A stretch of DNA of 63,161 nucleotides from Candidatus Saccharimonadota bacterium (GTDB lineage Bacteria; Patescibacteriota; Saccharimonadia; Saccharimonadales; JAQGHD01). The notes beneath the pieces are model-generated. The model ran no database searches. It had not been told where the DNA came from and was given only the letters and a program-made list of their open reading frames with translations. This document shows positions 3,822 to 35,940 of this stretch, one piece after another. Both the position numbers and the translations under genes were made by a program. Location of the stretch: positions 1 to 63,161 of the forward strand of contig JAQGHD010000025.1 of the NCBI GenBank assembly GCA_028288965.1, read 5' to 3'. How positions within the stretch are numbered: position 1 is the first letter of the stretch; the number at the start of each line of letters is the position of its first letter.

Positions 3822-3889
3822 GTTACGTGAAAATTCTGTGGGGCGGACCGACTGACAGGACCCCAGTCCTATTTTTGGAATTGCTAGGA

Positions 3890-22184: not shown

Positions 22185-22294
22185 CTTTTGCAAAGCAGTT
22201 CGGTCTAGTCCCCATAAACTGAAATAATTGGTTTTACAGATTCGTATGAATTTGACATAAAGCTTTAATACTACAATAAGTAGTATCTGCAAAA

Positions 22295-22334
22295 CCTGGC
22301 TCTCGGTAGTGATGGAAGTTAGAACTAAGCTTTT
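22295..22334. repeat. Direct repeat copy B: cassette right-end arm plus a degenerate tRNA-Asn 3' core (cctggctctcggtagtgatggaagttagaactaagctttt).
   Basis: About 30 of 36 positions match copy A (23071-23107). Provides the stop codon of the VOC gene. Confidence 0.55.
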
Positions 22335-22741
22335 GGATTGAAGTCGGAACTCATCCAGACAGGTTCCCACTGGTTGCCATCCAGATCCAACACCTCGTAG
22401 CCAAACATCATATCCTGCGGTACGCCCATATCTACTTGATAGTAGTCACCACCATTCTTCTTCGCAGTGTCGGCAAATTGCTGCACCGCATCTTTTGATT
22501 CAAGTGACAATGCAAGTAACACGCCGCTTGTTTTTATGGGATCGGCCACATCTTTACCTCGGAGGAACTTTTTATAAAAATCATGGGTTAAAAGCATTAC
22601 AAAAATTTCATCAGACCACTTCATGCCGCTAGCGTTTTCGTCAGAAAAGTCCGGCTGCTTAACAAATCCCAATGCTTCGTAAAAAGCCGTGGCTTTGGCC
22701 AAGTCCGAAATAGGTATGTTTATAAAAACTTGTTTAGACAT
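22325..22741 (-). CDS. VOC-family protein (glyoxalase / bleomycin-resistance / dioxygenase fold).
   Basis: 'MSKQVFINIPISDLAKATAFYEALGF' is the VOC N-terminal beta-alpha-beta-beta-beta motif. 138 aa. Confidence 0.7.
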   Translation of the reverse strand: MSKQVFINIPISDLAKATAFYEALGFVKQPDFSDENASGMKWSDEIFVMLLTHDFYKKFLRGKDVADPIKTSGVLLALSLESKDAVQQFADTAKKNGGDYYQVDMGVPQDMMFGYEVLDLDGNQWEPVWMSSDFNPKA

Positions 22742-22807
22742 GTATCATCCTTCACTATTTTTTACAGTTTAATTGTTTAATAAAACAAAAACAATACAAA
22801 ATTAGAA

Positions 22808-23017
22808 TTAAGATTTATCGTTTAAGTACTTGCTAGCAACACTTAAAGCGAACGAAGGCAGTATGATAAAAACGGTTATGAATAAAAGTCTTATGAGTAC
22901 TTTGCTAAGCGCGGAGTCTTGCTTGTCCGGACCTGAGCCCGTCAAAACGACTAAAATCCCCAGAATACCGAAGACAATCGACGCATAAGTGAACACTTGT
23001 GTAGCTCTTTTTTGCAT
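22808..23017 (-). CDS. Small two-TM hypothetical protein.
   Basis: The ORF could extend to 23107, but those extra N-terminal residues would be encoded by repeat copy A. I prefer the internal Met start (MQKRATQVF...). Confidence 0.4.
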   Translation of the reverse strand: MQKRATQVFTYASIVFGILGILVVLTGSGPDKQDSALSKVLIRLLFITVFIILPSFALSVASKYLNDKS

Positions 23018-23055
23018 ATTTTTAGTATACCAAACAAAAACACTGTGCTTGCGCA

Positions 23056-23110
23056 AAGTGCTTATGCTTGGCTCCGCGTAGTGATGGAAGTTGGAACTAA
23101 ACTTCAAAAG
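23056..23110. repeat. Direct repeat copy A: cassette right-end arm, then a copy of the tRNA-Asn 3' end (cttggctccg), then the 13-nt downstream flank.
   Basis: aagtgcttatGcttggctccg matches 23763-23783 at 20 of 21 positions. The gtagtgatggaagttggaactaa part matches copy B. Confidence 0.6.
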
Positions 23111-23111
23111 T

Positions 23112-23759
23112 TTAAGATTCTGCAGGAATCAACAAACCACTTTCCATTGTGAGTTGCGTTGCTGCGTTTATAACTTCATTTGCCTCCTGAATAAAAGGCT
23201 CTTTTCTATAATAATCAGCACCTCCAACAAAGCCTAAGTGTTGTCCTTTGTCGCTGTAATCTGAAACTTCAATATCATATGGAATTTTAGCGCGATTAGG
23301 ATGATGAGTTTTAAGCACATTTACTCGCATTTGTGCATTGTCAACTGGCTGGCTGACCCACAGTCGCTCTCTTGGGTAACTATCAGGACTAGAATCTGTA
23401 TTGCGAAAAACACGCAACCATTTTCCCGAACCAAGCACTACCGTAAGCTCTCGCCCCATTGGTATACCTTCTACCGGACACATATCCATAGTTCCTACGG
23501 CGTACGCAATTGAAGCGTCAACTGAAGGGTGTGGCGCTTGCGGATACACACCATCAAATAACTCAATAGCTCTCCCCATAAGACTTTTAAGGGCTGGCTG
23601 GAGTTGCGTTAACCGTTCTTGCATAGCCGAGAAGCTACTGTCAACGTCGATCGGTAATAAATATCTTTCCAAAGATGTGTTGCTCATAATGTCTCCAATG
23701 TCATTAAATACATTACTCTTAAAGGATGCAAGCATGAGTAAAATAAAAAAGCACCTCAT
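23112..23759 (-). CDS. Hypothetical protein encoded in an AT-rich cassette.
   Basis: 215-aa ORF. Start may be the internal Met (MSNTSLERYLLPIDVD...). No recognisable motif. Confidence 0.5.
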   Translation of the reverse strand: MRCFFILLMLASFKSNVFNDIGDIMSNTSLERYLLPIDVDSSFSAMQERLTQLQPALKSLMGRAIELFDGVYPQAPHPSVDASIAYAVGTMDMCPVEGIPMGRELTVVLGSGKWLRVFRNTDSSPDSYPRERLWVSQPVDNAQMRVNVLKTHHPNRAKIPYDIEVSDYSDKGQHLGFVGGADYYRKEPFIQEANEVINAATQLTMESGLLIPAES

Positions 23760-23775
23760 TTAAAGTGCTTATACT

Positions 23776-23850
23776 TGGCTCCGGAGGCCGGATTCGAACC
23801 GGCAACCTTAGCGTTAACAGCGCTCTGCTCTACCGTTGAGCTACTCCGGA
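23776..23850 (-). tRNA. tRNA-Asn (anticodon GTT), CCA encoded.
   Basis: Acceptor TCCGGAG/CTCCGGA. U8. D arm GCTC-AACGGTA-GAGC. Anticodon loop CTGTTAA. T arm GCCGG-TTCGAAT-CCGGC. Discriminator G. Confidence 0.85.
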
Positions 23851-24006
23851 TTAGTACCCCGCCAACAGTCTCCTTTCGGCGGGGACCCCTGACGCAATAC
23901 CACGGCATTATAGCTAAAAGCAGGCTGGCTTACAATCTGGTAATAAGGTGTGCATAAAGAGTAAACAAATCAATAGCGGTTTGCTAGAATAAGAACAGAG
24001 TAAAAC

Positions 24007-27000
24007 ATGAGGGTAAAAAAGCCGAACATAAACAAGGCGAGTATTGGTAAGCTATTAGATCAACTACGCCACTATTGGACGGCTACTGCGCTGCCCTTTC
24101 TCTTGAAAGCCTTCAAAAAATTCCGGCACCAGGGCATTCGGATCAGCAAACGTGTTGCCCGGTTTACCTGGAAGCATACCAAGCAGACTTCCCTCTTTTT
24201 GCATCGGCATGGTGCTAGGCGGCCGCATTCGTATCTGCGGAACAAATGGAAATGGTATGACCGGTGGCATGAATGGCAGTATCACCAGCATGTCCATACA
24301 GCTATTGCAGCTGTATATGTGCTTATTGTTGGCTCAATTATTTTTGTGGCCTATCAAAAAACTTTTGCTACTCCCGATCTAACTGATACCTGGGATTTCA
24401 CAGCTTCATCTAATTACACCTTTGATAGCGGTGCCGAAGCCAGCGGCAGTACCGCCCGGCTCAAGGCTCAAAACTATACGAGTGATAGCAACACCAAAGC
24501 CTTGTATCACTTTGATAGTAATTCTGGTACCACGGCCACCGATAGCTCAGTAAATGGTAATAATGCCACTACCACTGGCTCGCCTTCGTGGGTGGCGGGC
24601 CAACTCAATAATGCGATAAGTCTTAATGGTTCTACCCAGTGGTTGAGCGCCCCCGATACGGCCTCATTGTCACTGAGCCAGCCCAACACGCTGGAAGCTT
24701 GGGTAAAGTTTGGCTCCAGCTTTTCAGGCAGTAGTCACGATGGCGACCAGGTAATTTTAGACAAAGGTGCCTACAAACTGTATTACGATCACACCTCAGG
24801 CAAAATCAACTATGAAATGGCTAAGTCAACTGCCACCACCTGGACGGCTCGAGCCGGCAATGACATTAACGGCAGTTGGGATACCAGCGGCAAAGATTCC
24901 GTGCTGAGCCAAGCAGTCATTGGCAGCAATATTTATGCTGGGCTTGGCACTGGTAGTGGTGACGCCGAGGTCTGGAAATGGACTGGCAGTTCCTGGTCAA
25001 TAATTGGCGGTGACGGTATTAATTCCAGCTGGGATAAAAACCATGAAGCGGTTGATTCAATGTATGCCAACGGAACAATTTTGTACGTTGGGCTGGGATC
25101 AACCTTAAATGCTGATGCTGAAGTGTGGAGCTGCGATACTAGCACCAACTGCACCACCTGGACCAAGATTGGCGGTGACAATGTAAACAGTAGCTGGGGT
25201 GATACTTCCGATGTCTATTCTTTATGGTACGGCAACATAGGCGCCGGTAATTTCTTGTATGCCGGTCTCGGCAGCAGCGCTGTTAATGGTGATGGTGATT
25301 TGTGGCGCTGCACGCCATCTGGCGCAACGTGTTCTACGTGGACAAAAATCGGTGGCGATAACCTCAACAGCGGTTGGGCAAACGGCAACGAAGCAGTCTA
25401 TGCCATTAACTACGATGGTACGGGCCTGGTGGTCGGCCTGGGTAACACCGGAACTGATGGCCAAGTGTATCGCTGGAACGGCACGGCTTGGACAAAAATG
25501 GGCGGCGGCGGTTCAGCCGTCAATGCCAGCTGGAGTTCAGGTATTAATTCTGTCCACGCTATCACGGTGTTTGGAGGTAATATCTACGTTGCTACAGGTG
25601 ATGATAACGGTGATGCCGAAATTTGGAAGAGTTCTACCGCCGCCTATAGCTGGGTCAAAATTGGTGGCGACAATATCAACTCCGGCTGGGCTGGGACCAC
25701 CGATAAAATAGCCTATAGCCTAGCCAATGACGGCACCAACGTTTACGCCGCCGTTGATACGACAGCCTGGAAATGGAATGGGACGGCCTGGTCGCAAATA
25801 GCTGGTGGTAGTATAAATGGCAGCTGGAGTGCCGGGTTATCACTCAACTCGTTGATGTTTAGTGGTTCAACTCTGTACGGTGGGCTCCATGATGCCTTGA
25901 CGTTTGGGACATATGGTACTTCTGGAGAGTGGACCTTCAACGGTACGACTTGGACGAAAATTGGTGGTGATTACATGAATAACAGCTGGTCGTCCGAAGT
26001 GTATAGCCAAGTAAGCAGCATGGCGACCTATAACGGTAGTTTGTATGCCGGCGTCAGCACCCATGGTGGTACCCTGGGTAAATCAAACGTCTTTAAGTAC
26101 GACGGTACCAGCTGGAGCGTGGTGGGCGGTAGCGGACTGAATTCCTCGTGGACAAGTGGCTTTGGTGGTTTGTACGGCGAGATCTATGCCTTGATAGAGT
26201 ATAAAGGCAATCTGTATGCGGGTATCTCTGGTGCAAACGGTGGCAGCGGCGAGCTATGGAAATACGATGGTACTACCTGGAGCAAAGTTGGCGGCGATGG
26301 CGTTAACTCCAGCTGGGCCGATCTTACTTATGAATCGGTACAATCCTTGGCGGTGTATAACGGCAACTTATATGCTGGATTGGGAATAAGTCCTGGTGAT
26401 GCTGAGCTATGGAAATACGACGGCACCACCTGGAGCAGAGTTGGTGGCGATGGCATTAACTCCAGCTGGACAAATCTTACCTATCAGACAGTGCAGTCGC
26501 AGACAGTCTATAAGGGAAAGCTGTATGTGGGACTGGGTAATGGCAGCAATACGTTGGCCAGAGTTTGGAGCTATGACGGTACAAACTGGGTAGCGGTCGG
26601 CGGTAATTCTATTAACAGCTCGTGGGGATCTGGCCCAACGGAAGTTGACTCACTAGTAGCCTATAACGGCGACTTGTATGCTGGTTTGGGTAGCTCGCTA
26701 GCTACCGGTAGTACTGAAGTCTGGAAATACAATGATGTCAGTAACACGTGGACACGCATTGGCGGTGCCAGCCTGAATGCCAGTTGGTCGTCCGCCAGTA
26801 CCTATATCAGCGTAAAAGCCCTAACGGTTTATAATGGTGAATTATATGCCGGCATAGGCGGCTCGACTATTAACAGTGATGGTTCAGTTTGGAAATACAA
26901 TGGTTCAGTGTGGAGCCAAGTCGGCGGTAATGATCTAAACGGCGGCTGGTCCACAACGGATAATCTTGAATCGATAGGCACCTTAACCGTATTTAATGGC

Positions 27001-30000
27001 AAGCTATACAGCGGTTATTACACGTCCGGGTCTACAACTATACCGAGTTTTATTTGGTCTTATGGTGATAATAACTCTTTACAATCTGCGGCCACCACTC
27101 AAGACACCAATTGGCACCACATAGCCGCAACCAACGACGGGGTAACCATGAAGATTTACCTTGATGGTGTTGAAAATGCTTCTGGATCAAGTGCCAGCTC
27201 AATGCCGGATAACAATTTGCCGCTGCTTCTCGGTAAAGGTTACGGCTCGAGTGGCGCCGGCCTGGGGAGCGGCCCCCTCACGGGCAATCTAGATGAAATA
27301 AGAATTAGTGATATTGCTCGAACGAGCTTTACCACCCTGCCCTTTAGTTCTACCGAACAGGCCGTGACGCTTAATTCAGCGGTGCGAACCTCTGGGGTGA
27401 ACCACTGGGACACCTGGGCCGACAGCGAAACGGCCAATGGCGGGACAATTACCTATCGCTTATCCGATGATGGTGGCACAACCTGGAAATACTGGAACGG
27501 CAGTGCTTGGGCTGCTTCTAGCGGATTAACTTTGGCTAGCACTGTGTCGGTTATCAACACGCACATTGCTACCTTCCCAGCTACTTTTAGCGGCATTAAA
27601 TGGCAGGCGGTATTAAAGGGCAACGGCAACCAACAGGTGACGCTCAATTCCACGACCTTGCAGTCTACCTCCGATACGACGCCGCCAGCTACCAATGCCA
27701 GCGCCATTACTGCCCTTAAAGCTTTTGGCGGTTCCTCGTTGGTTACTGACGCCTGGACCAACGGCAGTTCGCCGTACTTTGCTTGGACGGCTGGCAGTGA
27801 TGCCGGCTCGGGCGTCAAAGGCTATTGCTTGTACTTGGGACAGGATAACACTGCCGATCCGGTCACTACCGCCGGGCTATTGGGTGCCAGCCCAGTTAGC
27901 ACCGGTGGACACTGTCAATTTATGGTCAGTGGTACCAATATTAATACGGCCACAGCCGGCTACCTGGCGTCTGCTTTAACTAGTTCCAACTCTCGCTACT
28001 ACCTGCGCATTAAAGCCATGGATAATGCTGGCAATACCTTTGGTACTGCCACTAGTTTTTCATTCTTTTTTGATAACACGCTGCCGGCTAACCCCGCCTT
28101 TATAACTGGACCATCAGGTTTTGTGAACACCAAGGCAGTGACGTTAACCTGGGCAACAGCTGGAGGCAATGCACCAAGCGATGGCAATTCCGGCCTGGCC
28201 GGCCTGCAATACCGGGTCAATAATGGCACCTGGTATGGTGACTCGCACAGCGGGGCCGGCGATATAAATGATCTGCTAACCAACGATGGCTCCTATACGT
28301 TTATCAGTAATCCTGATTTTCCGAATCTCAATGAGGGGGTTAACACTATTTACTTCCGTACCTGGGACGTAGCCGGCAATGTCACCACCAGTTATGTCAC
28401 TGCCGCCGTTAAGATCAACACCACCGGAGCACCGAGTGAACCGCAAAACGTCACCGCAACGCCCGGAACCAATACCACCAACAGTTTTGCTTTTAGTTGG
28501 AGTGCTCCGGCCACTTTTGTAGGGGATGTTAATAACCTGACCTACTGCTATACCATTAATACGTTGCCTTCACCCAGTACCTGTACCTTTACGGCCGGCG
28601 GGGTTACCAGTTTGAGCGCCAATGCCTACGCCACGCAACCAGGCACCAACACCTTTTACATTGCTGCCAAGGACGAATCAAGCAATATTAATTATGCTAG
28701 TTATGGGACGGCTACCTTTACGGCCACTACCGTAGCGCCTGGCATGCCGCTGAACGCCAACATCACTGATGTTTCTCTGAGGGCAACCAGCAGTTGGCGC
28801 TTGGCAATTAGCTGGGATCCTCCGGCCAGCGTTGGCGATGGCGTAGCCAGTTATAAAATATATCGTTCCACAAACAACGTAAGCTTTACGCCAATTGCCA
28901 CAATTAGCGGCACCAGCTACATCGATACCGGCCTTAGCCAAATTCATTACTATTACAAGATTAAAGCTTGTGATAGCACCAATAATTGTGGGGCCGATAG
29001 TTCGGTAGTAGACGAGACTCCCACCGGCCGCTACACTTCCCCGGCTAATCTTACTGGCCAACCAGCCGTCAGCGATGTAACGACCCGTAAAGCAACTATT
29101 AAGTGGAACACCGACCGAAGCAGTGACTCGCGTGTCGCCATCGGCACCAGTAGCGGCCACTATAGCCCGTCTGAAGTGGCTGTCTCGACTCAGGTCACCG
29201 AACACGTTGTTCAGCTTGATAATTTAAGCGCCGGTACCACTTACTACGTCAAAGCCAAATGGACAGACGAAGATGGCAATACCGGCAACAGCCAAGAAGT
29301 CAGCTTTACGACTGATGGCGCGCCGGTTATTAAAGAAGTCAGCGCCATTAAGGTGGGCCTAAATTCCGCGGTTATTCAGTTTACTGCTAAAAATGCCACA
29401 AAAGTGGGCTTGTCATTTGGTAAGTCTGATTCGTTCGGCGGTCTAAAAACGGTCAATACTTCACTTACCGAGTCAACCTATACTGTGGAGCTTGATGGGC
29501 TCGATGATGGAGCCAAATACTTCTATAAACTGACCGCCTACGATACCGAAAGCTTCCCCTATGATGGCAACGTCTTCACTTTTACCACGCCGCCGCGGCC
29601 GCATATCACCAACCTCCGCTTCCAGCCAGTTGATGGCGAACCAACCAGCACTCAAAAAGTAACCTGGGACACCAACGTAGCATCCAACTCAGTCATTACC
29701 TACGGCAAAGTCGGCACCAATGGGACGGATGTCCTAGTCTCGTCCATGGTGACGGCGCACGAGGTGGTTATTAGTGGGCTCGAGGACAACAGCGACTATT
29801 TCTTACTGGCTCAATCTCGCGATGTTGATGGCAACCTAGCGGTGTCTGACAAGCAAATTTTTAAAACGGCGCTCGATACACGTCCGCCCAAAATCACCGA
29901 TATTACGGTGGAGGCAACCATTAAGGGCACTGGGGCTGAAGCCCGTGGTCAGGTGGTTGTTTCCTGGAAGACAGATGAACCCTCAACCAGCCAAGTTGCT

Positions 30001-30246
30001 TACGGCGAAGGTTCAAACTCGGTGAACCTCCCCAATAAAACCAGTGAAGACAGTGGCTTGGCCACCCAGCACATTGTGATCGTTTCCGATTTGCCCACGT
30101 CTAAGGTGTACACTATGCAACCAGTGTCCAAGGATAAAGCCGGCAACGCCGCTAAGGGTGCTGGCCAATCGGCCATTATCGGGCGGGCCAGTGACAACGT
30201 GCTGACTATTGTGCTCAACACGCTCAGAAAGGTTTTTGGATTTTAG
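24007..30246 (+). CDS. Giant (2079 aa) membrane-anchored surface protein. It has two LamG/ConA-like lectin domains, about 20 tandem ~45-aa repeats (W-x-IGGD-x-NSSW...LYAGLG...AEVWKYDG), and a C-terminal array of Fn3-like domains. Putative adhesin.
   Basis: N-terminal cytoplasmic region then a TM segment (VHTAIAAVYVLIVGSIIFVAY). A 'LDEIRISD' LamG-like motif. The repeated 'TWTKIGGDN(I/V)NSSW' units are read directly from the translation. Confidence 0.8.
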   Translation: MRVKKPNINKASIGKLLDQLRHYWTATALPFLLKAFKKFRHQGIRISKRVARFTWKHTKQTSLFLHRHGARRPHSYLRNKWKWYDRWHEWQYHQHVHTAIAAVYVLIVGSIIFVAYQKTFATPDLTDTWDFTASSNYTFDSGAEASGSTARLKAQNYTSDSNTKALYHFDSNSGTTATDSSVNGNNATTTGSPSWVAGQLNNAISLNGSTQWLSAPDTASLSLSQPNTLEAWVKFGSSFSGSSHDGDQVILDKGAYKLYYDHTSGKINYEMAKSTATTWTARAGNDINGSWDTSGKDSVLSQAVIGSNIYAGLGTGSGDAEVWKWTGSSWSIIGGDGINSSWDKNHEAVDSMYANGTILYVGLGSTLNADAEVWSCDTSTNCTTWTKIGGDNVNSSWGDTSDVYSLWYGNIGAGNFLYAGLGSSAVNGDGDLWRCTPSGATCSTWTKIGGDNLNSGWANGNEAVYAINYDGTGLVVGLGNTGTDGQVYRWNGTAWTKMGGGGSAVNASWSSGINSVHAITVFGGNIYVATGDDNGDAEIWKSSTAAYSWVKIGGDNINSGWAGTTDKIAYSLANDGTNVYAAVDTTAWKWNGTAWSQIAGGSINGSWSAGLSLNSLMFSGSTLYGGLHDALTFGTYGTSGEWTFNGTTWTKIGGDYMNNSWSSEVYSQVSSMATYNGSLYAGVSTHGGTLGKSNVFKYDGTSWSVVGGSGLNSSWTSGFGGLYGEIYALIEYKGNLYAGISGANGGSGELWKYDGTTWSKVGGDGVNSSWADLTYESVQSLAVYNGNLYAGLGISPGDAELWKYDGTTWSRVGGDGINSSWTNLTYQTVQSQTVYKGKLYVGLGNGSNTLARVWSYDGTNWVAVGGNSINSSWGSGPTEVDSLVAYNGDLYAGLGSSLATGSTEVWKYNDVSNTWTRIGGASLNASWSSASTYISVKALTVYNGELYAGIGGSTINSDGSVWKYNGSVWSQVGGNDLNGGWSTTDNLESIGTLTVFNGKLYSGYYTSGSTTIPSFIWSYGDNNSLQSAATTQDTNWHHIAATNDGVTMKIYLDGVENASGSSASSMPDNNLPLLLGKGYGSSGAGLGSGPLTGNLDEIRISDIARTSFTTLPFSSTEQAVTLNSAVRTSGVNHWDTWADSETANGGTITYRLSDDGGTTWKYWNGSAWAASSGLTLASTVSVINTHIATFPATFSGIKWQAVLKGNGNQQVTLNSTTLQSTSDTTPPATNASAITALKAFGGSSLVTDAWTNGSSPYFAWTAGSDAGSGVKGYCLYLGQDNTADPVTTAGLLGASPVSTGGHCQFMVSGTNINTATAGYLASALTSSNSRYYLRIKAMDNAGNTFGTATSFSFFFDNTLPANPAFITGPSGFVNTKAVTLTWATAGGNAPSDGNSGLAGLQYRVNNGTWYGDSHSGAGDINDLLTNDGSYTFISNPDFPNLNEGVNTIYFRTWDVAGNVTTSYVTAAVKINTTGAPSEPQNVTATPGTNTTNSFAFSWSAPATFVGDVNNLTYCYTINTLPSPSTCTFTAGGVTSLSANAYATQPGTNTFYIAAKDESSNINYASYGTATFTATTVAPGMPLNANITDVSLRATSSWRLAISWDPPASVGDGVASYKIYRSTNNVSFTPIATISGTSYIDTGLSQIHYYYKIKACDSTNNCGADSSVVDETPTGRYTSPANLTGQPAVSDVTTRKATIKWNTDRSSDSRVAIGTSSGHYSPSEVAVSTQVTEHVVQLDNLSAGTTYYVKAKWTDEDGNTGNSQEVSFTTDGAPVIKEVSAIKVGLNSAVIQFTAKNATKVGLSFGKSDSFGGLKTVNTSLTESTYTVELDGLDDGAKYFYKLTAYDTESFPYDGNVFTFTTPPRPHITNLRFQPVDGEPTSTQKVTWDTNVASNSVITYGKVGTNGTDVLVSSMVTAHEVVISGLEDNSDYFLLAQSRDVDGNLAVSDKQIFKTALDTRPPKITDITVEATIKGTGAEARGQVVVSWKTDEPSTSQVAYGEGSNSVNLPNKTSEDSGLATQHIVIVSDLPTSKVYTMQPVSKDKAGNAAKGAGQSAIIGRASDNVLTIVLNTLRKVFGF

Positions 30247-32277: not shown

Positions 32278-32733
32278 CTAGCGAGATTTTATGGCGGCGT
32301 CAATGCGACGTTGTTCGTCCCGTTTCTTGAGCGTTTGACGTTTATCATAGAGCTTCTTGCCACGCCCCACCGCGACACGCAGTTTTATATATCTTCCCCG
32401 GGTCAATATCTCCAGCGGTACAATAGTTTGTCCTTGCTGTTTGGCGGCAATAAACTGGTTTATTTCTTTCTTTTTAGCCAGCAATTTGCGGCTGCGCGTT
32501 TGCTCGGTCTCGCTAATTGGCAAACCGGGACCGCCAATAATCGCGGCGTTTATCAACCAAAGTTCGCCGTCCTTGACGGTGACATAGGCTCCTTGCAGTT
32601 GGCCGTGGCCTAAACGCAGTGCCTTGGTTTCTGGCCCAGATAGCATCAGACCCACAAGCAAGCTATCGTCGAGAGCATAGTCGTGCCTGGCTCGCCGGTT
32701 ACTGATAGTGTGGGATTGCTTATTTTTCTTCAC
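32278..32733 (-). CDS. smpB: SsrA-binding protein SmpB.
   Basis: 'NRRARHDYALDD' and 'GRGKKLYDKRQTLKKRDEQR' are SmpB signatures. Confidence 0.85.
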   Translation of the reverse strand: MKKNKQSHTISNRRARHDYALDDSLLVGLMLSGPETKALRLGHGQLQGAYVTVKDGELWLINAAIIGGPGLPISETEQTRSRKLLAKKKEINQFIAAKQQGQTIVPLEILTRGRYIKLRVAVGRGKKLYDKRQTLKKRDEQRRIDAAIKSR

Positions 32734-34823: not shown

Positions 34824-35396
34824 TTACTGAGCAGTATTGGCTGTGTAGCCACCGTACTGATTTTTGGTCGGCTTACAATTGTGCCATAGGCCAAGATTGG
34901 CACTACGGGCATTTGTTTCATACTGACGGAATTCATCAGCTTTGGTAAACGGAAAGCTTAAGTAAGCAAAACCGTAGCCTTGCTTGATAATCTCGGCATT
35001 TACCAGACGGTTATCAGGCAAGTACACGTAGCGCAGCAAGCGGTTGTACCTATCGCGATTGGTATTGATCGGGTCGGCTTCCAGTCGGACAGCAGATTTA
35101 CCAATAAGCTGTTTAGTAAAACTAGCCGCTGCTAAGCCAAAACACTGTACTGGCTTACGCGGATCGTGTGTTTCGGGCGTATCCACACCAATTAAACGTA
35201 CCTTTTCGCCATTGCCATTCATGTTTACACCAATGGTGTCGCCATCGACAAACTCGGTCACTTGGTAGAGTCCGGGCTGGGTTTTAACGGCCGCTTGCTG
35301 CGCGCTGGCCAACCAACCCTGTTTTTGGGCAACAAGAATAAATAAGCTGATTACTACCGTTAGTAATGACACTTTGTGTGCTCTTTGAGCTGCCAC
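34824..35396 (-). CDS. Secreted thermonuclease (staphylococcal nuclease / SNase-like).
   Basis: 'VRLIGVDTPETHDP...YNRLLRYVYL...AEIIKQGYGFAY' are SNase motifs. N-terminal signal. Confidence 0.7.
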   Translation of the reverse strand: MAAQRAHKVSLLTVVISLFILVAQKQGWLASAQQAAVKTQPGLYQVTEFVDGDTIGVNMNGNGEKVRLIGVDTPETHDPRKPVQCFGLAAASFTKQLIGKSAVRLEADPINTNRDRYNRLLRYVYLPDNRLVNAEIIKQGYGFAYLSFPFTKADEFRQYETNARSANLGLWHNCKPTKNQYGGYTANTAQ

Positions 35397-35418: not shown

Positions 35419-35940
35419 TTATAGGGTATCAGAAAGTAGGGATCGTATGTAGTCGGGTGACACTTTGGTGCCGTCTACCTGCAGCGTTAGCTCATCTGGC
35501 CTGGGGGGTTGCAGATTGCTGCTTAAGCGCTCCCAAACAGTTGCCGGCATATTTCCCAAAATCCGCGTGTGTTGCAAAGGTGTGCTGTCGGTAGCCCGTT
35601 GCTTGGCAAGTTCCTTAGGTGCGGTGACCCAAACCAGTAGGGTCTTGGCGCCACGGCGATTGGCAATCTGGCGCAGGTGTTCGCGGTCTTTATAAAAGTT
35701 AAAATTGGTATCAAAAATAACGCTCCGGCCCCTGGCCAGCAAGCTAGCAGCTTTGTCGTTTAAATGATTATAGAGTTCCAAGTTTTCACTAGGACTGTGG
35801 GTGGGAGTAGTAAACATTTCACGCCGGGCATGATCGGCCCACAGCAATTCGGCACCGGTCAGTTCATGAATAATTTTGGCGGTGGTAGTCTTGCCTGCAC
35901 CAGGGTAACCAAGCATTAAATAAAGCGTAGGCGTCTTCAC
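35419..35940 (-). CDS. P-loop NTPase / AAA_33-type small kinase.
   Basis: Walker A 'GYPGAGKTT'. 173 aa. Confidence 0.55.
   Translation of the reverse strand: MKTPTLYLMLGYPGAGKTTTAKIIHELTGAELLWADHARREMFTTPTHSPSENLELYNHLNDKAASLLARGRSVIFDTNFNFYKDREHLRQIANRRGAKTLLVWVTAPKELAKQRATDSTPLQHTRILGNMPATVWERLSSNLQPPRPDELTLQVDGTKVSPDYIRSLLSDTL

Follow-up and report, generated by a model that had tools for sequence, protein, structure and literature searches.

The tRNA-Asn locus and its two-cassette block

The stretch analysed here (the window) is a whole contig of 63,161 bp from a metagenome-assembled genome (MAG) of Candidatus Saccharibacteria, as its proteins are named. On its minus strand, a tRNA-Asn(GTT) gene is followed at its 3′ end by a block of two tandem cassettes (Table 1). 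Each cassette comprises a 5′ left arm (a terminator hairpin and a putative promoter), one or a few co-oriented cargo open reading frames (ORFs) and a 3′ site made up of a right arm and a core. The core, (CG)GAGCCA at 23776–23783, forms the last 6–8 nt of tRNA-Asn and is common to every cassette site. The block (22297–23775) has a GC content of 0.41 compared with a contig mean of 0.49 (standard deviation 0.028), which is the lowest value for any segment of the same size in the contig. This agrees with an earlier interpretation made from the letters alone (the sequence-only reading), which had described AT-rich cassettes inserted in tandem behind tRNA-Asn.

Two direct repeats were found in the block. 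Repeat D2, AAAGTGCTTAT[G/A]CTTGGCTCCG, occurs at 23055–23076 and 23762–23783 with 21 of 22 positions identical, and spans the last 8 nt of tRNA-Asn (CGGAGCCA) together with 14 nt of its 3′ flank. Repeat D1, TGGCTC..GTAGTGATGGAAGTT[A/G]GAACTAA.CTT, occurs at 22297–22332 and 23069–23104 and is 86% identical over 36 nt (31/36). When up to three mismatches were allowed, each repeat had exactly two matches in the window, and 0.00 were expected from 100 shuffles. The repeats lie where the sequence-only reading had placed them, and the alignments confirmed their full strength rather than a much weaker similarity. In the orientation of the tRNA, the order is also as it had been described: tRNA core, left arm, gene, right arm, core, left arm, genes, right arm, core. 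One detail was reversed. The distal core (CGAGAGCCA), which had been taken as degenerate, corresponds to the family consensus NGRGAGCCA found in related genomes, and the middle copy (GCGGAGCCA) is the unusual one.

The cargo of cassette 1 had been read as a protein of 215 aa. The ORF itself is upheld, but its start is most likely an internal ATG at 23687, giving 191 aa; this ATG is preceded by a GGAG ribosome-binding site, and homologues have a length of 185–191 aa. The two-transmembrane protein and the VOC protein that had been assigned to cassette 2 were both recovered by helix prediction and Pfam, respectively. A clear intrinsic terminator lies directly 3′ of tRNA-Asn. The left arm is indeed a conserved arm, as had been recognised, and can now be specified further: it opens a terminator hairpin, and a promoter-like segment comes next.

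Table 1. Features of the tRNA-Asn locus in the window; sequences are given in tRNA orientation
Feature	Positions	Strand	Description and evidence
Promoter-like sequence upstream of tRNA-Asn	23907–23935	-	TTGTAA-17-TATAAT; consensus scan, 10/12 matches (consensus match only)
tRNA-Asn(GTT)	23776–23850	-	Encoded CCA; ARAGORN; Rfam RF00005, 69.3 bits
Left arm of cassette 1	23749–23775	-	AGTATAAGCACTTT (14 nt) opening a terminator hairpin (AAGCACTTTAAATGAGGTGCTT + T-run)
Cassette 1	23069–23775	-	707 bp: left arm, promoter-like segment, one ORF, 31-nt site; from core and site positions
Cargo ORF of cassette 1	23112–23687	-	191 aa
Site 1	23069–23099	-	TAGTTCCAACTTCCATCACTAC-GCG-GAGCCA (right arm + core); nhmmer E 9.6e-10
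Left arm of cassette 2	23055–23068	-	AGCATAAGCACTTT, then a hairpin with T-run
Extended -10-like box	23024–23032	-	TGGTATACT, 6 nt before the ATG of the 69-aa ORF; putative promoter, from sequence
Cassette 2	22297–23068	-	772 bp: left arm, two ORFs, 31-nt site
Cargo ORF of cassette 2	22808–23017	-	69 aa, two predicted membrane helices, family F8
Cargo ORF of cassette 2	22325–22741	-	138 aa, VOC/bleomycin-resistance-like (Ble-like); Pfam Ble-like_N 3.7e-6, Glyoxalase 7.5e-4
Site 2 (distal)	22297–22327	-	TAGTTCTAACTTCCATCACTAC-CGA-GAGCCA, family consensus; nhmmer E 2.5e-11
Chromosomal flank past the array (B′-like)	22185–22296	.	Hairpin at 22268–22286; extends to the end of a convergent 651-aa G8/beta-helix gene

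A conserved site behind tRNA-Asn in Saccharibacteria

The right arm and core proved to be widespread in the lineage. A 21-mer of the right arm, searched in one-genome-per-species GTDB contigs, matched 12 stretches, nine of which were from Saccharibacteria or Saccharimonadales MAGs, with one stretch per genome. The arm was joined to ..NGRGAGCCA in all nine, and in five of them tRNA-Asn(GTT) lay at a distance of 0.8–3.8 kb, oriented relative to the arm as in the window. The remaining three matches, outside the phylum, lacked the core and look like chance. A 20-mer matched 31 metagenome contigs, including 11 with a co-oriented upstream tRNA-Asn; most of the others were too short to tell. After removal of near-identical contigs, 42 strong sites in 32 non-redundant loci were retained. 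Sequence of at least 2 kb upstream of the first site was available for 12 loci, and in nine of these tRNA-Asn lies upstream in the same orientation. The sequence-only reading had proposed a search for further copies of the arms in relatives, and the right arm with its core was indeed found behind tRNA-Asn in many Saccharibacteria.

The site, GTTCTAACTTCCATCACTAC-NGR-GAGCCA, has a length of 29–31 nt, and its consensus, (TA)GTTCTAACTTCCATCACTAC-G/N-G-R-GAGCCA, is at least 90% conserved at 26 of 29 positions. GAGCCA ends all sites, and the last 6–8 nt equal the 3′ end of tRNA-Asn (..CCGGAGCCA). Across species, the 22-nt arm is conserved to a higher degree than the acceptor and T stems of the adjacent tRNA. 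The CG that precedes GAGCCA in the tRNA was found in 3 of 12 tRNA-proximal sites, including that of the window, compared with none of the 30 others (Fisher p = 0.019).

Several sites depart from this form. In L014 (5758–5800) and L022 (5489–5530, both in tRNA orientation), variant sites carry a GC-rich hairpin of 15–16 nt at the same internal position, as in GTTCTAATTTCC-TCCGCCAGCCGGCGGA-ACTACGCCGGGGCCA. A second variant family keeps the ends and has a changed middle, GTTCTAAGTAYGYC.ACTAS-NGGGAGCCA (L010 19–48, L030 199–229, L026 ~7390). In L046 (525–1135), a site lies 500 bp after tRNA-Met, with an excisionase-like HTH_17 ORF between them. In L047, tRNA-Lys is followed by a class-1-like left arm (AACCATAAGCATTTT; 1209–1300), and a site without GAGCCA (3822–3843) lies 2.5 kb downstream of this tRNA.

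The sites are arranged in arrays. The distance from tRNA to first site is mostly 0.4–1.3 kb, with a maximum of 5.5 kb in a copper-resistance-like unit, and the spacing between sites is 0.5–1.3 kb. At least seven sites occur within 7 kb in L010, weaker variants counted. For 33 of the 42 sites, a co-oriented ORF of at least 60 aa ends within 60 nt upstream, and an opposite-strand ORF was the nearest neighbour of none (0/42). The TAG that opens the site serves as the stop codon of eight ORFs, among them the VOC gene of the window.

Immediately after GAGCCA, a few classes of left arm can be distinguished. In the first, AGCATAAGC(ACTTT..), a terminator hairpin is followed by a -10 box; in the second, AGGTTAGAACCAAnAtTTACAGAGG.., the terminator precedes an extended -10 box of the TGGGGTAnGAT type. 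A third, (N)TATTGAC.., contains a -35 box, and a fourth consists of AGAAAAAA and a hairpin. Every class was observed both directly after tRNA-Asn and directly after sites, in each case before unrelated cargo. The first left arm of the window is of the class-1 type, known after tRNA-Asn and after sites elsewhere, and is homologous over ~45 nt to the left arm preceding a DnaJ-like gene in L045. The sharing of left-arm classes between the tRNA and the sites is as predicted by reciprocal exchange at a shared core. Left arms carry terminator hairpins and extended -10-like boxes near start codons, a pattern suggesting that each cassette would be transcribed on its own.

Cargo and flanks of the arrays

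In an all-against-all clustering, the genes between tRNA-Asn and the last site were almost all unique to their locus, and the flanks were recurrent. For example, F9-F10-F22 lie downstream of the array in both L012 and L037, yet the cassettes differ. Uniform conservation of the block, which would have told against the sequence-only reading, is the opposite of what the other genomes show; in these, unrelated cargo is bounded by the same site. The cargo is a typical accessory repertoire and includes VKOR, PhnB-like VOC, RidA, GNAT acetyltransferases, S-adenosylmethionine-dependent (SAM) methyltransferases, NUDIX, HAD, low-molecular-weight (LMW) phosphatase, PNPOx-like, YdeI/OmdA and P-loop kinase families. 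YdeI-like genes follow sites with differing left arms in five loci. A conserved ORF beside last sites ('F1') was considered as an RNA gene and ruled out, being the antisense of a real YdeI-like gene.

The 191-aa protein of cassette 1 matched no Pfam family. Its 21 relatives, none of them annotated, are restricted to Saccharibacteria-like metagenome sequences. In its predicted fold (pLDDT 92), a long helix at the N terminus is followed by an antiparallel sheet and then by a helix at the C terminus. The loci of its homologues at first appeared to lack the arms. A profile search overturned this impression, revealing sites within an array-like region of L003 and, in L001, a short site following the gene. 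In two loci, the homologue lies beside a LysM-CHAP peptidoglycan hydrolase; an immunity-type role for the protein would be a guess.

In cassette 2, the 69-aa and VOC genes share one unit, with no site in the interval between them (22742–22807). In L023, the 69-aa module also comes immediately after a site and has the left arm and promoter seen in the window; the similarity stops just past the stop codon. Since this similarity ends there and no site intervenes, the sequences suggest that cassette 2 may represent two former units fused after loss of a site. Family F8, to which the 69-aa protein belongs, is also present in L020. The VOC family is very common in Saccharimonadales (461 matches) and occurs in many contexts. 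The possibility that the VOC gene travels with the site was rejected, as only one of the four homologue loci checked had a nearby (short) site; the gene is widespread in the lineage irrespective of the array.

Upstream of tRNA-Asn, SmpB and a small HNH protein recur in several loci. SmpB is the immediate upstream neighbour of the tRNA in L013, L019 and L033; in the window it is encoded at 32278–32733 (minus strand), 8.5 kb from tRNA-Asn, and the immediate upstream neighbour is a gene for a 2079-aa repeat-rich surface protein (24007–30246). An HNH-motif protein of 110–133 aa, often after SmpB, lies directly upstream of tRNA-Asn in L021 (4395–4796), L033 (4406–4738), L051 (973–1299) and L028. 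An 87-aa GIY-YIG protein was found once just upstream of the tRNA and once within an array (L014 4493–4756, L022 118–381). No ORF cluster homologous to the HNH or GIY-YIG proteins was present in the clustered 9 kb around the tRNA of the window.

Other features lie further from the arrays. The window encodes an AAA_33/zeta-toxin-like P-loop kinase (35419–35940, minus strand) adjoining a staphylococcal-nuclease-like ORF (34824–35396). In L012, a few kb past the array (2557–2630), an AdoCbl-II riboswitch was matched with 41.7 bits, exceeding the gathering score. No contig-scale switch in GC skew indicative of a replication origin or terminus was observed in the window. Exact-protein look-ups found none of the window proteins on record, and the flanking 651-aa protein had no relative with more than 51% identity.

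Nature of the site and searches for a recombinase

The sites are conserved by sequence and not by structure. An attC-like hairpin was rejected, as the 33-nt consensus folds at only -0.3 and 0 kcal/mol on the two strands (z = +0.9 and +1.2 compared with shuffles). A stem, of 9 bp, is given only by the subclass with the left arm AGGTTAGAACC. The site matches no Rfam family, and with neither a fold nor such a match, its identity as a structured RNA or element was likewise rejected. It is also not a tRNA fragment or pseudo-tRNA: ARAGORN and Rfam returned nothing, and a hand alignment to the 3′ half of the tRNA needs five inserted bases. A distant tRNA origin is possible, but the site is not read as a tRNA remnant. 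An inverted-repeat search of the block yielded no terminal pair, and the cassette ends, AGYATAAGC... and ...CATCACTAC, are unrelated to each other, so that the terminal inverted repeats of insertion sequences or miniature inverted-repeat transposable elements (MITEs) are lacking.

The absence of an integrase from the block had been recognised in the sequence-only reading and extends to the whole contig and to the surroundings of all 32 related arrays. Pfam detected no recombinase domains in the window ORFs scanned, and neither an HxxR box II nor a serine-recombinase motif was present in any frame of the window or the loci. In a six-frame translation of 424 kb (the window and 57 loci), the best phmmer match to an approximate E. 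coli XerD query had an E value of 0.41. A phage or plasmid donor was rejected after three scans of the viral collection revealed no copy of the site, and no autonomous partner element was found in the loci or the viral collection.

A proposed gene-capture site at the 3′ end of tRNA-Asn

Taken together, we consider it probable that the two cassettes of the block form an array at a gene-capture site that is lineage-wide in Saccharibacteria (Saccharimonadales), and that the array was built by site-specific recombination at the 3′ end of tRNA-Asn. The anatomy of the cassettes, the conservation of the site, the variability of the cargo, the link to tRNA-Asn and the lack of a linked recombinase are direct observations. 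The recombination itself, the position of the crossover, the circular intermediate and the identity of the enzyme are inferred. A site-specific recombinase encoded elsewhere in the genome would act on the (G)GAGCCA core, exchanging a circular cassette with the 3′ end of tRNA-Asn at this shared sequence. Each insertion would leave the tRNA intact and place the left arm of the newcomer directly after it; the left arm of the previous cassette would then sit after the site of the newcomer, and older cassettes would be pushed outward. In such a scheme, the tRNA end would play the role of attI and the 29-nt site that of attC in integrons. Overall, the interpretation in the sequence-only reading is supported by the anatomy and the comparative evidence, with site-specific recombination and an enzyme acting in trans as its inferred parts.

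Several observations weigh against this scenario. No recombinase was found in the 63-kb window or in ~360 kb of related loci, including 32 non-redundant arrays. The site shows no dyad symmetry and no fold, and to the right of the core there are several classes of sequence rather than one conserved half-site, which is unusual for a simple tyrosine or serine recombinase. Given this variety of sequences and the lack of a dyad, the enzyme may not be a textbook member of either family. A few sites lie near other tRNAs (tRNA-Met in L046 and tRNA-Lys in L047). No circular cassette contigs were found, and neither an empty site nor a presence/absence polymorphism was seen between near-identical contigs. 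The lineage of the window has no close relative in the databases.

Among other explanations, the 29-nt motif might be an intergenic expression element acting at the RNA level, such as a tRNA-mimicking signal at mRNA 3′ ends. The arrays would then have arisen without a recombinase, by duplication and by homologous exchange after natural transformation, with tRNA-Asn and the motif serving as short homology arms. Saccharibacteria are reported to be naturally transformable. The position of the motif just after co-oriented ORFs, eight of which stop at its TAG, would fit such a signal, as would the terminator hairpin that usually comes next and the lack of a linked recombinase. The GC-rich hairpin shared by two variant sites at the same internal position also resembles what structured RNAs often show. 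Nevertheless, exact copies of the motif are confined to one locus per genome in all nine species genomes, and because a general 3′-end signal should be dispersed, this explanation is disfavoured. The motif is moreover unstructured and belongs to no Rfam family, 29 nt is very short for RecA-dependent exchange, and neither the ending of the motif in the last 6–8 nt of the tRNA nor the shared left arms would be accounted for. We therefore regard an RNA-level element as unlikely.

The arrays might also be the remains of larger, integrase-carrying elements (prophages, islands or tycheposon-like elements) that integrated serially at tRNA-Asn and decayed until only their distal ends and attR were left. 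Tandem integration at tRNA genes with leftover attachment site (att) copies is well known (Hackl et al., bioRxiv 10.1101/2020.12.28.424599). Traces of this kind were found in the relatives: a 28-nt fragment of the tRNA-Asn T-arm and acceptor at the far end of the array in L014 (7620–7650), and a 14-nt copy of the tRNA-Asn 3′ end (GGCCTCCGGAGCCA) within the array of L050 (4468–4481), located 57 nt after a full site and just before the promoter of the next cassette. Both copies look like traces of classical tRNA-targeting integration, a second mode at the same locus in relatives. The excisionase-like ORF in L046 would also fit. In contrast, no integrase or integrase fragment was detected in the 424-kb six-frame translation, and the units are uniformly small, with both ends conserved and the left arm abutting the core, a pattern that random deletion would not repeat across dozens of species. 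It is for these reasons that decay of islands is disfavoured. In addition, the 22-nt arm does not resemble tRNA and is more strongly conserved than the adjacent tRNA stems, the opposite of what a decaying remnant should show, and the viral-collection scans contained no copy of the site. Decayed elements are thus an improbable source of the arrays. Finally, a local duplication or chance similarity peculiar to this contig, for which only the presence of just two copies of each repeat in the window would speak, is scarcely credible and already refuted, given a chance expectation of 0.00 copies and the occurrence of the site in 40 other loci of other organisms with different cargo.

Comparison with known systems

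The gene-capture site proposed here most readily invites comparison with integrons and with clusters of attC sites lacking integron-integrases (CALIN). Like these, the arrays consist of co-oriented, small, mostly single-gene cassettes (~0.5–1.3 kb) without their own recombinase, each ending in a recombination-type site beside one fixed insertion point, and the cargo varies by genome and includes accessory enzymes (VOC, GNAT, NUDIX). A co-oriented array of variable cargo at one locus, as in integrons, is thus present, whereas an adjacent IntI and a folded attC are both lacking. No IntI lies beside the insertion point, which is the 3′ end of a tRNA and not an attI. The site is ~29 nt, linear and conserved in sequence, in contrast to attC, a hairpin of 57–141 nt conserved in structure. 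Furthermore, cassettes of the integron rely on a common Pc, whereas those described here bring a terminator and a putative promoter.

By definition, tycheposons carry their own site-specific integrase together with hallmark replication genes (Hackl et al., bioRxiv 10.1101/2020.12.28.424599). The arrays share with them a streamlined host genome, integration 3′ of a specific tRNA gene, att copies that separate the units and adaptive cargo, as well as, in the scheme proposed here, the outward displacement of older elements by newcomers. However, neither an integrase nor the hallmark genes were found, and the units are ten times smaller. The repeats of tycheposons are partial tRNAs of ~40 nt, whereas the repeats here contain 6–8 nt of tRNA sequence and a 22-nt arm that is not tRNA-like. 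As in tRNA-targeting elements in general, the block lies at a tRNA 3′ end and tRNA sequence is directly repeated at its far end, the tRNA part of the repeat being only 6–8 nt; an element-borne integrase was not found.

Two kinds of non-autonomous element offer further parallels. Cis-mobilisable elements (CIMEs), described in Streptococcus thermophilus, are att-flanked deletion derivatives of integrative and conjugative elements (ICEs), which share the attL and attR of the ICE and are mobilised by a related one. Both they and the cassettes are non-autonomous, att-bounded DNA in tandem at an integration site, with the recombinase supplied in trans (putatively so for the cassettes). The difference is that no parent element is known for the cassettes, and their units look purpose-built, with a 5′ expression module, cargo and a 3′ site. 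IMEX are integrase-less elements that integrate at dif using the XerC/XerD of the host, and their attachment sites may be conserved one-sidedly. They resemble the cassettes in being integrase-less, in standing in tandem at one chromosomal site, in depending, as proposed here, on a host-encoded recombinase and in this one-sided conservation. They differ in that the site described here has no dif-like dyad (two 11-nt arms and a 6-nt spacer, a general pattern that may not be that of the Saccharibacteria dif), lies at a tRNA gene and is located in a window without a replication-terminus signal.

Implications

A full-text literature search combining Saccharibacteria or Patescibacteria with tRNA-Asn, integrons, cassettes and islands found no description of the locus. 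Tentatively, the arrays could represent an undescribed cassette-capture platform in which tRNA-Asn serves as the docking point and hundreds of expression-ready cassettes are exchanged between species via a linear 29-nt site, a possibility held with less confidence than the gene-capture site itself. The recombinase of such a platform would be encoded outside the array and may belong to an enzyme type with no known connection so far to the capture of cassettes.

Saccharibacteria and other members of the candidate phyla radiation (CPR) live as obligate epibionts, with tiny genomes in which few mobile elements can be recognised, and their acquisition and shuffling of accessory genes are poorly understood. 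Cassettes ready for expression at a conserved docking site would account for a hotspot of gene flux in the lineage. The site would add a sequence-defined, non-hairpin counterpart to the attC of integrons and would point to an unidentified recombinase. Together, the end of tRNA-Asn and the 29-nt site provide a simple marker for the flexible gene pool in metagenomes. They may also offer a landing pad for genetic tools in organisms whose manipulation is difficult. If the platform is real, it would constitute a mechanism behind the flexible genome of ultra-small episymbionts and a ready-made system of site-specific integration for their engineering.

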